A stretch of 38,398 nt of DNA, taken from Candidatus Buchananbacteria bacterium RIFCSPHIGHO2_02_FULL_56_16 (lineage in GTDB: Bacteria; Patescibacteriota; Patescibacteriia; Buchananbacterales; UBA6539). A program made the position numbers and the translations under genes. Numbering within the stretch: position 1 is the stretch's first letter; each line of letters starts with the position of its first letter. The stretch spans positions 1,302 to 39,699 of the forward strand of contig MHIL01000028.1 in assembly GCA_001817495.1 (NCBI GenBank), written 5' to 3'. Below the pieces are notes generated by a model. It saw only the letters and a list, made by a program, of their open reading frames with translations, ran no database searches and was not told the DNA's origin. Below, in pieces: positions 2,569-28,298 of the stretch.

Positions 2569-2683
2569 AATTTTGAATTTTTAATTTCGAATTTTGATTC
2601 AATTTTGAATGATTGAATTTAAATTTTTGAAACATTAAAACCTTAAACATTGAATCAAAATTTAAAATTCAAAATTGGAAATT
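2569..2683. repeat. AT-rich 7-nt-periodic palindrome, family A
   Basis: aattttg aattttt aatttcg aattttg ... caaaatt taaaatt caaaatt ggaaatt; related copies at 17679 and 28190. Confidence 0.9.
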
Positions 2684-3455
2684 AGCCAGGGGTTTGTCCC
2701 CGCAGCAAAATTTCCCGCGCCAGCTGCTCGTAGGCCTTCGCGCCCTTCGAGCTGGCGTCGTAGGCTAAAATGGTCTGGCCGTAGCTGGGCGACTCGGTCA
2801 GCCGGACGTTGCGGGGAATCACCGTCTCAAAGACGTGGAAGGGTGAGTGCTCCTTGAGCTCGGCGAAGACCTGGTTCGAGAGCCGGTTGCGGCCGTCGTG
2901 CATCGTCAGCACCGCGCCGAGGATCGAGAGCTCCGGCTGAAGGTTTTCCTTGACTAAGTTAAAGGTGTTGAGCAGCTGGCCCAGCCCCTCGAGGGCGAGG
3001 TACTCGGCCTGGACAGGGATCAGCACCGCGTCGGCGGCGACGAGGCCGTTGATGGTCAGTAGATCGAGCGACGGCGGGCAGTCGATGATGATGTAGTCGT
3101 AGTCGTTTCGCACCTCCAGCAGGGCGTTTCGCAGCCGGTACTCGCGGTCTTCCAGCGGTACCAGCTCGATGCGGGCGCCAGCCAGATCAGGCGTCGCCGG
3201 CGCTAGCTTGTAGCCCTGGTGGCCGGTCCCCACGATGACGTCCCGGAACGAAACATCATCGGCCAGCCCGTGGTAGACGCCTTTGGTGATCGTCTGGTGG
3301 TTAATACCCAGCGCCGAACTGGCGTTAGCTTGGGGATCAAGGTCAACCAGCAGGACGAACTTCCCCAGCCACGCCAGGTACGCCCCGAGGTTAATCGCGG
3401 TCGTCGTTTTACCGACGCCGCCTTTCTGGTTGACGATGGCAATCGTCTGCGACAT
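2682..3455 (-). CDS. parA: ParA/Soj ATPase
   Basis: NQKGGVGKTTT deviant Walker A, DLDPQAN, IIIDCPPSL; start at MSQTIAIV because the longer ORF runs into tRNA-Leu. Confidence 0.95.
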   Translation of the reverse strand: MSQTIAIVNQKGGVGKTTTAINLGAYLAWLGKFVLLVDLDPQANASSALGINHQTITKGVYHGLADDVSFRDVIVGTGHQGYKLAPATPDLAGARIELVPLEDREYRLRNALLEVRNDYDYIIIDCPPSLDLLTINGLVAADAVLIPVQAEYLALEGLGQLLNTFNLVKENLQPELSILGAVLTMHDGRNRLSNQVFAELKEHSPFHVFETVIPRNVRLTESPSYGQTILAYDASSKGAKAYEQLAREILLRGQTPG

Positions 3456-3461
3456 ACTGGT

Positions 3462-3512
3462 ATTATAGTAGAAAATGAGCGCTTTGACAATTTTTTTAAA
3501 AATAAGTATACT
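3462..3512. promoter_or_regulatory. Overlapping divergent sigma70-type promoters (tRNA-Leu on +, parA on -)
   Basis: +: TTGACA 3484-3489, 17 nt, TATACT 3507-3512; -: TTGTCA 3490-3485, 17 nt, TATAAT 3467-3462. Confidence 0.75.
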
Positions 3513-3529
3513 CCACCGTAGGCTAACGA

Positions 3530-3614
3530 GCCGGAGTGGCGAAATTGGTATACGCGCACGACTCAAAATCGTGTGGAGCAATCCATGAGAGTTCGAGTCT
3601 CTCCTCCGGCACCA
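3530..3614 (+). tRNA. tRNA-Leu(CAA)
   Basis: Cloverleaf gccggag/ctccggc, anticodon loop ctCAAaa, long variable arm, TTCGA, encoded CCA. Confidence 0.96.
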
Positions 3615-3679
3615 ATGTATTTATACCCGCGTCTAACTAAAATCAGAAGGTAAAAATCAACTTTCGTTTTGAGTTTAGC

Positions 3680-3708
3680 TTGACAAAAAGCCACACTCAC
3701 GGTATAGT
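3680..3708 (+). promoter_or_regulatory. Sigma70-type promoter for the tRNA-Met pair
   Basis: TTGACA-17nt-TATAGT. Confidence 0.75.
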
Positions 3709-25700: not shown

Positions 25701-25708
25701 ACGGTAAT

Positions 25709-25736
25709 AACAATTAACAGTTAACAATTGACAATT
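25709..25736. repeat. Four tandem heptamers (single arm) between atpG and atpD
   Basis: aacaatt aacagtt aacaatt gacaatt. Confidence 0.75.
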
Positions 25737-26646
25737 ACTCAAGCGCCGCCTTGCCGCCGGAGATCTCGGCGATCTCGCGGGTAATGCCGGCCTGGCGGGC
25801 CTGGTTGTAAACTAAGGTGAGCCCCCACATCATATCAGTGGCCGCGTCGCTGGCGTTGCGCATCGCGAGCATCCGCGCCGAGTGCTCGGACGCCGTGGAC
25901 TCCAGCAGCGCCTGGTAGAGCTGGATTTCAATCAGACGGGGCAAGAACTGATCCAGCACCTCGGCCGGACTTGGTTCAAATAGGTACTCGCTCGCTCGCG
26001 GCCCACTGACCAGGGCCGGCTCGCGACGGCCGACGCTGCCGAGTGTTTCATCCGGCGCGGGCTCGAGGGGCAATAGCTGCTTGATCCGCGGTTCCTGGCG
26101 CAGCGGCGTGACAAAGTCGGTGTACATCACGGCCACCTGGTCGTACTGACCGGCGAGGTAGCCCTTGACCACCATGGTGGTCAAGGCGGTAACGTCGGCC
26201 GAGCTCTGGGCCATATCCTGCTTTTCAAACTCCGCGACGACGCGCTGCTCTTGGCGGGCCAGCGCTTCGCCGCCCTTGCGGCCCAGCACCACCCACGACT
26301 GGTCGGTAACGCCCGACGCGCGCCGCGCCCGGCTGTAGCCGTTTGCTTCGGTAACCATCCGGCTGTTGAAGCCACCGCACAGCCCGCGGTTCGAGGTAAC
26401 GAGAATGAACGCCGCGGTGGTGGTTTTTTCGTGGGGCTGGAGCAGCGGGTGCTTGGTTCGGTCGACGCGCGCGACCAGTTGCATCACCGTCTGCCAGGCA
26501 ACGTCGGCGTAAGCCCGCGACGAGAGCACGGCATTAACCGCCTTGCGCATCTTGGCCGCGGCCACCATCTCCATCGCCTTAGTGATTTTCTTGGTGTTGC
26601 CAATCGAGCGGATGCGCCGGCGGATGATTTTGGTCGAAACGGCCAT
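25735..26646 (-). CDS. atpG: ATP synthase gamma subunit
   Basis: [31 protein letters not shown]. Confidence 0.97.
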
Positions 26647-26649
26647 AGG

Positions 26650-28179
26650 TTACGCCGCCAGCTGTTCGCTTTTTACCAGGTAATCCACCGTCTGCTTGTA
26701 GCTGGCAATCAGGGCAATGAGCTCGCGCTCGCCGTCGGCGTCGAGGTCTTTTCGGGCGGCGATGTTGCTCAGGGTCCGCTGACCCTGGGTCGCGGCGTAC
26801 TCGGCCAGGTCGGCCAAAAACGGCTGGACTTTTTCCGTCGGTACGTCGTCGAGGTGGCCGTTGACCGCCGCGTAGAGCATCAGGACCTGGATGGTAACCG
26901 GCACCGGCTCGTACTGGCCCTGCTTGAGGACTTCCGTCAGGCGGGCGCCGCGGTGGATCTGCTTGCGGGTTGCCTCGTCGAGGTCACTGCCAAACTGGGC
27001 GAACGCCGCCAGCTCGCGGTACTGAGCCATCTCGAGCTTGAGCCGGCCGGCGACTTTTTTCATCGCCTTAATCTGGGCACTGCTGCCGACGCGGGATACC
27101 GACAAGCCGGTATTAATCGCCGGCCGGATACCCTGGTAAAACAGGTCGCTCTCCAGAAAAATCTGGCCGTCGGTAATCGAGATGACGTTGGTGGGAATGT
27201 AGGCGGAGATGTCGCCGGCCTGGGTTTCGATGATCGGCAACGCCGTCAGGCTGCCGCCGCCGTAGTTTTTGTTCAGCCGGGCGGCCCGCTCCAGGAGCCG
27301 CGAGTGGAGGTAGAAGATGTCGCCCGGGTAGGCTTCGCGGCCCGGCGGCCGGCGCAGCAGCAGCGCCACCTCGCGGTACGCCACCGCGTGCTTGGACAGG
27401 TCGTCGTAAACCACGAGCACGTCTTTACCTTGGTCCATAAAGTACTCCCCCATCGCGCAGCCGGCAAACGGGGCCAGGTACAGCAACGAGGCCGGGGCGG
27501 ACGCGCCGGCGGCGACCACGGTGGTATACTCCATCGCCCCTCGCGCCGTCAACTCCGCCACGATCCGCACCGTCTTTGATTCCTTCTGGCCGATCGCCAC
27601 GTAGATGCAGATGACGTCAGCGCCTTTTTGGTTGATGATCGTGTCAATCACCAGCGCCGTCTTGCCCGTCTGCCGGTCGCCGATGATCAGCTCACGCTGG
27701 CCCCGGCCGATCGGGATCATCGCGTCAATCGCTTTCACGCCGGTTTGGAGCGGCGTGTTAACTCCCTGGCGGGTGATGACCCGCGGCGCGATTTTTTCAA
27801 TCGGGTAAAATTTTTCGGTGCTGATGGTGCCCTTGCCGTCAACCGGAATGCCGAGTGGGTTTAGCACCCGGCCAATGATCTGTTCGCCGACCGGTACCTC
27901 GAGAATCCGGCCGGTGCTCTTGACCGTCGAGCCCTCGGCCACCGCCTGGTAGTCGCCCAAAATAATGGCGCCGATAAAATCTTCTTCGAGGTTCAGCGCC
28001 ACGCCGAATACGTTGTTGCCGAAATCGAGCATCTCGCCGGCCATGGCGTCGGCCAGACCGGAAATTTTCGCGATGCCGTCGCCGACCTCAAACACCGTTC
28101 CGACTTTCTCGACGGTGACGCTGCTCTGGTACTGCTTGAGCTGCTGGGTTAGTGATTCGATGATCTGTTGTTTGTGCAT
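26650..28179 (-). CDS. atpA: ATP synthase alpha subunit
   Basis: [25 protein letters not shown]. Confidence 0.98.
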
Positions 28180-28189
28180 AGACAGATTA

Positions 28190-28298
28190 AATTTTGAATT
28201 TCTAATTTTGAATTTCGAATCAATATTTAAATCTTTAATTTCGAATGTTTAAAACATTCAGTCATTCAAAATTGATTCAAAATTTGGAATTTAAAATT
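28190..28298. repeat. AT-rich 7-nt-periodic palindrome, family A
   Basis: aattttg aatttct aattttg aatttcg ... caaaatt tggaatt taaaatt. Confidence 0.9.

Follow-up and report, generated by a model that had tools for sequence, protein, structure and literature searches.

Intergenic hairpins of 7-nt units in a Buchananbacteria genome as probable gene-less copies of a four-helix-bundle gene cassette

Introduction

What are the hairpins that fill gaps between genes, from stop codon to start codon, in the genome of Candidatus Buchananbacteria bacterium RIFCSPHIGHO2_02_FULL_56_16? The question arose from a 38,398-nt stretch of contig MHIL01000028.1 (G000:C28:1302-39699, where G000 is the source genome and C denotes its contigs; this whole stretch is called the window), in which intergenic segments are built from degenerate 7-nt units on one arm and their reverse complements on the other. 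An initial annotation of the window had listed ten such hairpin sites and two single arms, and all of them were found at, or a few bases from, the positions that it gave. Here we argue that these hairpins represent gene-less members of a family of small palindromic cassettes of the intervening sequence (IVS) type, mobile or unstable, a reading to which we assign a probability of about 70%. In its full form the cassette consists of an array of 7-8-nt units, a gene for a four-helix-bundle (4HB) protein of ~120 amino acids (TIGR02436/PF05635) and an inverted array; in its gene-less form only a short unrelated loop lies between the two arrays. The most frequent subfamily has TAG at the end of its upstream units and CTA at the start of its downstream ones. 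Copies belong to dispersed families, may be nested with their layers in a fixed order, and may occur in one genome while missing from a near-identical one.

Hairpins of 7-nt units occur throughout the genome

The source genome (1.056 Mb in 39 contigs, 88% complete, 56% G+C) was scanned for tandem arrays with Tandem Repeats Finder (TRF), which called 325 arrays of period 7, 98 of period 8 and 52 of period 6. The 719 intergenic gaps (93,312 nt) contained 213 period-7 arrays, compared with 4.4 on average in five dinucleotide shuffles, whereas only 73 were present in the 943 kb of called open reading frames (ORFs). Arrays of period 8 (52 versus 4.4 in shuffled gaps) and period 14 (42 versus 1.0) were enriched as well. 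Autocorrelation across all gaps peaked at lags 7, 14 and 21, with a value of 0.314 at lag 7 as compared to 0.272 at lag 6 and 0.276 at lag 8. That the periodicity might be no greater than in shuffled DNA, an outcome that the initial annotation had said would speak against its proposal, is therefore ruled out.

Hairpins were scored with a stricter cut, requiring at least 18 pairs in the folded domain and a lag-7 excess of at least 0.12, and with a looser one. The stricter cut was passed by 115 of the 719 gaps, compared with 11 of 719 in one shuffle, and the looser cut by 140 hairpins, compared with 26 in a shuffle; we put the number of gaps with a period-7 hairpin at about 100-115. The fold was more stable than that of the gap's own shuffles in 112 of the 115 hairpin gaps (mean difference 13.4 kcal/mol; 6.5 kcal/mol in other gaps). 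A reverse-complement match at most 200 nt away was found for 150 of 311 arrays, a figure that has no chance control. At gathering thresholds, Rfam matched only a tmRNA and four tRNAs over the whole window and none of the hairpins. Together these results confirm the observation of period-7 intergenic hairpins, and they extend it to a genome-wide class in which period and layout are conserved while the words vary.

With a mean G+C of 0.30 the units are AT-rich, and they fall into 98 canonical words, the commonest of which accounts for 39 of the 325 arrays. As an aside, the whole genome has a higher G+C content (56%) than 18 sampled relatives of the same family (35-47%), and the intergenic hairpins stay AT-rich. 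The 140 hairpins that pass the looser cut cluster into dispersed families of 14, 8, 8, 8, 7, 5 and 4 members plus smaller ones. Some families share a conserved non-repetitive core; others are alike in their arms only and have unrelated loops. Composite hairpins consist of nested layers, whose order is fixed in the examples studied and runs from outside to inside as AGCTnnT, TAGGAAT and AGCTTGT/AGCTTTTT. Many families that look different have in common a TAG core every 7 nt, and when the 5' arms of the two strands are counted together there are 441 TAG and 157 CTA.

The hairpins are not placed at random. Co-directional gaps make up 94 of the 115 hairpin gaps (464 of 719 overall) and divergent gaps only 8 of 115 (130 of 719 overall; context chi-square p 9e-5), so that divergent, promoter-containing gaps are avoided. 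With respect to gene direction an orientation bias was seen for family 1 alone (7 of 7 members), the remaining families being mixed. That the hairpins touch the neighbouring codons holds for about half of them: the base lies at most 12 nt from the stop codon in 79 of 143 cases and at most 12 nt from the first possible start in 69 of 137. The absence of a Shine-Dalgarno (SD) motif, noted earlier for the adjacent starts, is not specific to them by our crude measure, since SD-like motifs precede 8 of 81 hairpin-adjacent starts and 82 of 587 others. Genes followed by a TAG array end in TAG in 19 of 32 cases (305 of 925 for other genes), and in 10 of these 32 genes, including the one encoding the 1047-aa ORF of the window, the first TAG of the array itself is the stop codon.

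Several hairpin families share arm words with 4HB gene cassettes

A profile search identified six PF05635 genes in the source genome, a family which, like TIGR02436, is that of the "23S rRNA intervening-sequence protein". Inspection of their flanks by eye showed that five of the six are enclosed by inverted arms of 7-base repeats, each with words of its own, and these words are the ones that make up gene-less families. The arms of two cassettes, C23:58268 and C23:39769, match other loci at 90-100% identity over 26-37 nt, at more than 20 and at least 13 contig sites, respectively, among which are the window hairpins at 23621 and 18713. The arms at 23621 are 100% identical over 28 nt to those of cassette C23:58268-58642, and at 18713-18791 both arm layers and their order are those of cassette C23:39769-40161, with 9 nt in the place of the gene. 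The cargo protein scores 126.5 bits against TIGR02436, and its closest solved structure is 2GSC (Xanthomonas XCC0516; E 3e-28). The suggestion that the hairpins might be "empty shells" of a TIGR02436-type cassette has therefore held up.

Strong flanking inverted arms are rare: among 1086 genes tested only eight have them, three of which are 4HB genes. Three of the other five genes, including proS, sit between two hairpins of the same family, and the remaining two have arms that do not show period 7. No recurrent cargo besides 4HB was found among the 1086 genes. The highest flanking-repeat score in this set belongs to the two hairpins at 7057 and 8602; the proS-like gene (7149-8594) bracketed by these same-orientation copies (7057-7142 and 8602-8691) mimics a cassette with terminal repeats.

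A separate motif, (C/A)AATCAACAT(A/G)GCGC, has ~17 good copies genome-wide, usually directly after a heptamer array (for example C23:39761-39775, C18:1575-1589, C34:11464-11478 and C4:3019-3033). In one form it is followed by a sequence (...GCTATG) ending on the start codon, as at 4HB genes and a Y1-transposase-like gene; in the other it is followed by a GCGC stem and a T run, resembling a terminator.

Cassettes with polar arms are found in many candidate phyla

We searched 30 relatives (genomes of 0.7-1.4 Mb, 78-100% complete). In this order-level sample PF05635 genes are present in 26 of the 31 genomes, and 22 of 35 4HB genes (source genome plus 26 relatives) have significant inverted arms, among them the arm types AAATTCG and AAAATTC, neither of which has a cassette in the source genome. 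Three of the source proteins, used as queries in a wider scan of species genomes, gave 467 hits, of which the best 80 (56-70% identity) were analyzed; because these were selected as the best and are kin to one another, the counts below describe one subfamily. The loci come from many classes of the candidate phyla radiation (CPR) and from a few metagenome-assembled genomes (MAGs) of Gammaproteobacteria, Bdellovibrionales and Nitrospirae, the closest homologues being hosted mostly by Patescibacteria (CPR) MAGs.

Significant arms flank 47 of 78 of these homologues; where the arm measured at least 20 nt (44 cases), a lag of 7 fitted best in 26 and a lag of 8 in 16. At least three TAG at 7/8-nt spacing occur upstream of 71 of the 80 loci (2 of 80 shuffled flanks), and at least three CTA at this spacing occur downstream of 70 of the 80; chains of CTA upstream, that is, of opposite polarity, were found at only 5. 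In the upstream arms of 78 homologues the ratio of TAG to CTA is 177:4. The four variable positions of the unit take 44 forms across the loci and the TAG is kept, which indicates that the periodic core is either conserved or regenerated again and again. Among close homologues the core arrays (89%) vary less than does the complementarity of the arms (60%). Different words and yet complementary arms in 47 of 78 cases also rule out that the arms lack compensatory change, the second outcome that was to have counted against the initial annotation.

At orthologous positions, two sets of gaps in relatives measure 9-273 nt and 17-123 nt. They often hold period-7 sequence made of other words, and several have no element. 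The rpmI-rplT gap of several relatives is filled with the word GTTAAnT. In the infC-rpmI gaps we observed, in addition, that directly behind infC most of loci L002-L018 have a small hairpin in common, CAGC...GCTG followed by TTTTTTAATTT. Its role could be that of a terminator, an attenuator or an L35/L20 leader, and the source genome does not have this hairpin.

Near-identical genomes with and without one of the hairpins

L147, a metagenome contig of 3.2 kb, is 99.15% identical to window positions 17786-19440 and 93% identical to 17482-17683, and the segment missing from it is precisely the hairpin at 17684-17785. Both neighbouring hairpins occur in this contig with identical sequence. At the empty site the junction is a 2-nt TT overlap and a palindrome of one unit is left. 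This shows that a whole hairpin was gained or lost between near-identical genomes, in either direction. Presence and absence in relatives, which had been proposed as a check, is documented at this site, and the distribution over the 30 relatives is patchy. The TT overlap, at a single empty site for which there is no outgroup, fits a tiny target duplication and a microhomology deletion equally well.

Directly behind the tRNA at 19357-19430 (window 19357-19440) the similarity to the same contig ends completely, from contig position 1855 onward, which points to a strain-variable island adjoining this tRNA.

Hairpins of the same build lie in 23S rRNA genes of relatives

As the 23S rRNA gene of the source genome itself is not assembled, those of relatives were used. 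They measure 3.2-3.4 kb, as compared to 2.9 kb for the model. In G012 the apical loop of 23S helix 25 (model positions ~583-585) contains an ORF-less hairpin, 108 nt long, that is made of GTTAAnT units, G013 has an ORF-less hairpin built of 7-nt units in helix 45 (model position ~1218) and another further downstream, and the inserts of G019 are 8-nt-periodic. The word GTTAAnT is common to the 23S inserts of two relatives and the single arm at window position 25708. We take helices 25 and 45 to be the classical IVS positions; hairpins of the same build at these positions argue that the elements described here and the classical IVS are of one kind. In Coxiella, according to the accessible part of the description, the IVS, located in helix 45 and containing an S23p ORF, is a selfish element (PMC4990558). 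Like IVS, the elements described here are long stem-loops that may enclose an S23p/PF05635 4HB ORF, as is the case for five of six such genes in the source genome, for 22 of 35 when relatives are included and for 47 of 78 in other species. Unlike IVS, the copies in the window lie between protein genes, a location in helix 25 or 45 being seen only in G012 and G013. In the accessible portions of the IVS literature we found no mention of a heptamer periodicity of the stems.

Weighing the cassette against other explanations

An alternative is that the hairpins are RNA elements selected by the host, whose stems would couple stop and start codons, set mRNA processing and stability or tune subunit ratios. 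The filling of gaps from stop to start in core operons and the enrichment in co-directional gaps would be expected of such elements, as would the frequent recurrence of period-7 sequence in the same gaps of relatives, and in Beggiatoaceae heptamers that precede starts without canonical ribosome-binding sites have been read, in the text available, as translational regulators (PMC4679880). Signs of selection at the RNA level were, however, not seen in the stems: mismatches show no G.U bias on the sense strand (23 G.T versus 33 A.C), and only in 45 of 109 cases does the sense strand give the more stable fold. Moreover, the orthologous gaps vary in size, five relatives are nearly free of arrays, the same families adjoin unrelated genes, and one site is empty in a 99.15%-identical contig. 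The regulatory mRNA stems proposed earlier are therefore not supported, and we consider this explanation improbable. The patchy distribution, the empty site and the lack of signs of RNA-level selection favour instead the view that the element is selfish or neutral and is tolerated at its sites.

To a similarly low degree we credit the view that these are plain microsatellites, which grow by slippage in place, acquire inverted partners by fold-back or hairpin-templated repair, and are neither mobile nor linked to a gene. Some arms are indeed very unequal, with 11-12 perfect units in one arm and 2-3 in its partner at C23:40161 and a similar imbalance at L255; single arms exist, words differ between orthologous gaps, and the empty site of L147 retains a palindrome of one unit. 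Evidence against slippage in place comes, however, from composite copies that share non-repetitive cores and layer order at many loci, from arms that are 100% identical over 26-28 nt across contigs, and from the fixed TAG...gene...CTA polarity (71 upstream and 70 downstream of 80 loci). A further point against it is that array density tracks the number of 4HB genes. Over the 30 relatives, period-7 arrays per 10 kb correlate with PF05635 genes per Mb (Spearman 0.57; 0.59 over 22 genera; 0.26 for other periods), and the five genomes without a PF05635 gene have 0.17-0.93 arrays per 10 kb as compared to 7.5 in the window. Contrasts within genera are in the expected direction in g5, g7, g14 and g15 and not in g9.

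Intrinsic, possibly bidirectional, transcription terminators are by far the least probable explanation, because despite the hairpin form and some T-rich 3' arms the gaps have a G+C content of only 16-39% in place of a G+C-rich stem with a T run, only 13 of the 115 hairpin gaps are convergent (125 of 719 overall), and the sites lie not at operon ends but within the operons atp, parAB and infC-rpmI-rplT, whose genes need to be co-expressed.

Several observations weigh against the hairpins being gene-less copies of the cassette. Gene-less loops whose arms match C23:58268 or C23:39769 contain no remnants of the cassette interior and are unrelated to one another. As homology does not extend beyond the arms, the gene may have been deleted from such copies or could equally have entered pre-existing hairpins. 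For the families AAAAATC, AATTTYG and CAATCAC no cassette is present in the 88%-complete source genome, and cassettes with similar words were seen in relatives only (L069, L072). No nuclease or transposase associated with the hairpins was found in the source genome. The density correlation rests on 13-60 kb sampled per genome and on kin that are not independent, and three relatives are poor in arrays despite their 4HB genes (G017, 13 genes and 0.5 arrays per 10 kb; G021, 6 and 0.28; G005, 5 and 0.18). The empty site in L147 could reflect a slippage deletion across the stem rather than an insertion. Finally, the polarity of the 5' arms holds for TAG alone and not for TAA (327 versus 387 for the reverse complement) or TGA (189 versus 245), so that an all-frame stop signal cannot be the general meaning of the arrays.

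How a palindromic cassette could be tolerated and maintained

If the hairpins are copies of an IVS-type cassette, their 30-45-bp stems would, once transcribed, be cut by RNase III like those of IVS; a gene for RNase III is present in the source genome (profile search). Such cutting would explain why they are tolerated in rRNA as well as in the operons atp, parAB and infC-rpmI-rplT, and we infer that the IVS precedent, in which stems are cut out or cut through by RNase III, offers the best-supported reason for tolerance. The arrays would expand and shrink one arm at a time via slippage. The periodic core may serve the cassette's own protein as a binding site or may act as a stop signal in all frames: periods of 7 and 8 are both coprime to 3, so that TAG appears in all three frames within three units, and this TAG, used as a stop by host genes, may, in the TAG families, help to insulate the stem from ribosomes.

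With neither a transposase nor a nuclease nor a reverse transcriptase associated with the hairpins, the 4HB protein is the only candidate factor for their copying. Transposases bind subterminal repeats, and the putative recognition of the arms by the 4HB protein can be likened to this. We therefore put forward, tentatively and as a doubtful though possible extension, that the 4HB protein is the maintenance or mobility factor of the cassette and recognizes the periodic core of the arms (for example TAG every 7-8 nt upstream and CTA downstream), and that heptamer hairpins, 23S IVS and the heptamer repeats of other bacteria might be full and empty forms of one widely transferred, transposase-free class of hairpins. 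Other routes of spread were considered and rejected. Reverse-transcriptase-dependent spread finds no PF00078 match in the 88%-complete source genome, and mobilization of the type of IS200 or of REP-associated tyrosine transposases (RAYT), where REP stands for repetitive extragenic palindromic, is not indicated by its three PF01797 genes, none of which is flanked by heptamer arrays. One of these, the Y1-transposase-like gene at G000:C34:10782-11441, is flanked by GC-rich REP-like hairpins of its own, and its tandem peptide repeats seemingly derive from the same hairpin inserted in frame.

Comparison with known repeats

We know of no origin or function for the heptamer repeats of bacteria, which have been on record for decades, and to our knowledge the 23S IVS and their 4HB ORFs are equally unexplained. 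Intergenic heptamer repeats include the short tandemly repeated repetitive (STRR) sequences of filamentous cyanobacteria. Others, as far as the accessible text goes, are GGGAATC in Xanthomonas, with 70-75 convergent (inverted) pairs per genome, and GGGGA(C/T)T in Nostoc (Rehm 2015, PMC4692102), as well as TAACTGA in Beggiatoaceae, cyanobacteria and Bacteroidetes, which is found a few nt before starts, also in ribosomal-protein operons (MacGregor 2015, PMC4679880). To call the class uncharacterised, as the initial annotation did, was thus too strong. Like these repeats, the elements studied here are tandem 7-nt units, intergenic and often near start codons. Unlike them, with their one or few words per genome, they comprise 98 words, are mostly hairpins, are AT-rich rather than G-rich, and reside in a Patescibacteria-type genome. 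The text of PMC4692102 does not contain "S23", "23S", "intervening" or "helix bundle", and neither it nor PMC4679880 links the repeats to a gene in the parts that are accessible. Nor did we find a link between heptamer repeats and IVS or 4HB genes elsewhere in the literature, subscription journals and supplements not being covered. The link that unites heptamer repeats and IVS is apparently unpublished, and it is testable.

MITEs (miniature transposable elements with inverted repeats) and REP or paired REP (REPIN) sequences offer a second comparison. As with these, palindromes form dispersed families at gene ends, vary in presence between strains and have a longer, gene-carrying form; the differences are that the cargo is no known transposase, that in most families the loops are not conserved and that the arms are internally periodic. 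A cognate RAYT/Y1 transposase flanked by the same repeats was not found. The cargo shares its 4HB fold family with Avd of diversity-generating retroelements (DGRs), and PF05635 is recognized, in the text available, as Avd-like and IVS-encoded (PMC10053308). A role of the 4HB protein as DGR Avd was rejected (26.2 bits, with a cut-off of 80, and the PF00078 result given above).

One build and shared words connect gene-less hairpins, gene cassettes and, in relatives, rRNA inserts, and the strict TAG...gene...CTA polarity is kept across many candidate phyla. The elements occupy a large share of the intergenic DNA of ~1-Mb genomes, split core operons, give host genes their stop codons (10 cases) and break short-read assemblies at their sites. 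The questions that they raise are whether the protein binds the arrays, whether RNase III cuts the stems and by which route the copies arise.

Sites in the window

The coordinates of the individual sites are collected in Table 1. According to Pfam, the neighbouring genes encode ParA, ParB, an M16 peptidase, a class-II tRNA synthetase, IF3, L20, L35 (27.2 bits, slightly below the cut-off) and the b, delta, alpha, gamma, beta and epsilon subunits of ATP synthase; the tmRNA lies at 17282-17671 (Rfam). TRF called period 7 at 2569, 7057/7121, 8597/8668, 9320, 14923, 17680/17764, 18375/18456, 18713/18771, 25708 and 28190, and period 8 at 23615/23667 because the units of this site are a mixture of 7 and 8 nt. 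Two entries of the initial list needed adjustment: at 18371-18489 the periodic arms are degenerate and surround an unrelated GC-rich hairpin, and the arm at 4795-4830 is weak. The sites at 9278 and 23621, grouped there as AGCTnnn, belong to two different families.

Table 1. Hairpins and single arms in the window (window positions; lag-7 denotes autocorrelation at lag 7)
Position	Strand	Feature	Basis	Context
2572..2680	.	AATTTYG-family hairpin, 109 nt	43 pairs; lag-7 0.58 vs 0.35; fold	Spans gap from parA stop (2682-2684) to parB ATG (2559-2561)
4795..4830	+	Weak single arm, ~five degenerate 7-nt units		Upstream of 4847 ORF; lag-7 0.51 vs 0.21-0.37 at other lags; no TRF call at score 30
7057..7142	.	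AAAAATC-family hairpin	TRF, fold, Pfam of neighbours	Between proS-like stop (7149-7151) and M16 peptidase ATG (7049-7051)
8602..8691	.	AAAAATC-family hairpin, second copy	TRF, fold	Opposite side of proS-like gene; 2 of 88 aligned bases differ from 7057 copy (by eye)
9278..9349	.	AGCTnnT (TAG-core) family hairpin	Sequence, fold	TAG of first heptamer is stop of 1047-aa ORF (9341-12484, minus strand)
14924..15016	.	Hairpin, CTAATTT/AGAAATTAG arms, loop ~50 nt	TRF, fold	Polarity on gene strand CTA-first
17684..17785	.	AATTTYG-family hairpin (stem 17687-17793)	Fold, Rfam, contig alignment	Between tmRNA and infC
18371..18489	.	Degenerate period-7 arms AAAGTGC / AACTTTA round separate GC-rich hairpin (~18407-18449)		Spans gap from infC stop to rpmI ATG; identical in contig L147
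18713..18791	.	Nested hairpin, outer arms TAGGAAT, inner AGCTTGT, 9-nt loop	Fold, arm comparison	Between rpmI and rplT
23621..23688	.	AGCTTGT/AGCTTTTT family (7/8-nt, TAG-core) hairpin	TRF, fold, Pfam	Downstream of atpC
25708..25737	-	Single arm, 4.3 units TAACAAT (gene strand: GTTAAnT)	TRF	Begins right after atpG stop, before atpD
28190..28298	.	AATTTYG-family hairpin	TRF, fold	Between atpH (stop 28326) and atpA (start 28179)

Contigs from four DNA runs were compared with window positions 7000-26900. The organism's own depth in these runs is ~7-13 and many of the contigs end at hairpins; among the matches listed there were no informative indels in unit number.

Two further features of the window stand apart from the periodic hairpins. 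Between atpD and atpC, at 24144-24304, there is a 160-nt hairpin with a G+C-rich outer stem of ~22 bp that has no 7-nt periodicity (lag-7 0.29 versus 0.24) and represents a different kind of intergenic palindrome. In addition, the gene encoding the 1047-aa surface-protein-like product contains a 96-nt tandem duplication (1.9 copies, 90% match) at 11814-11992.

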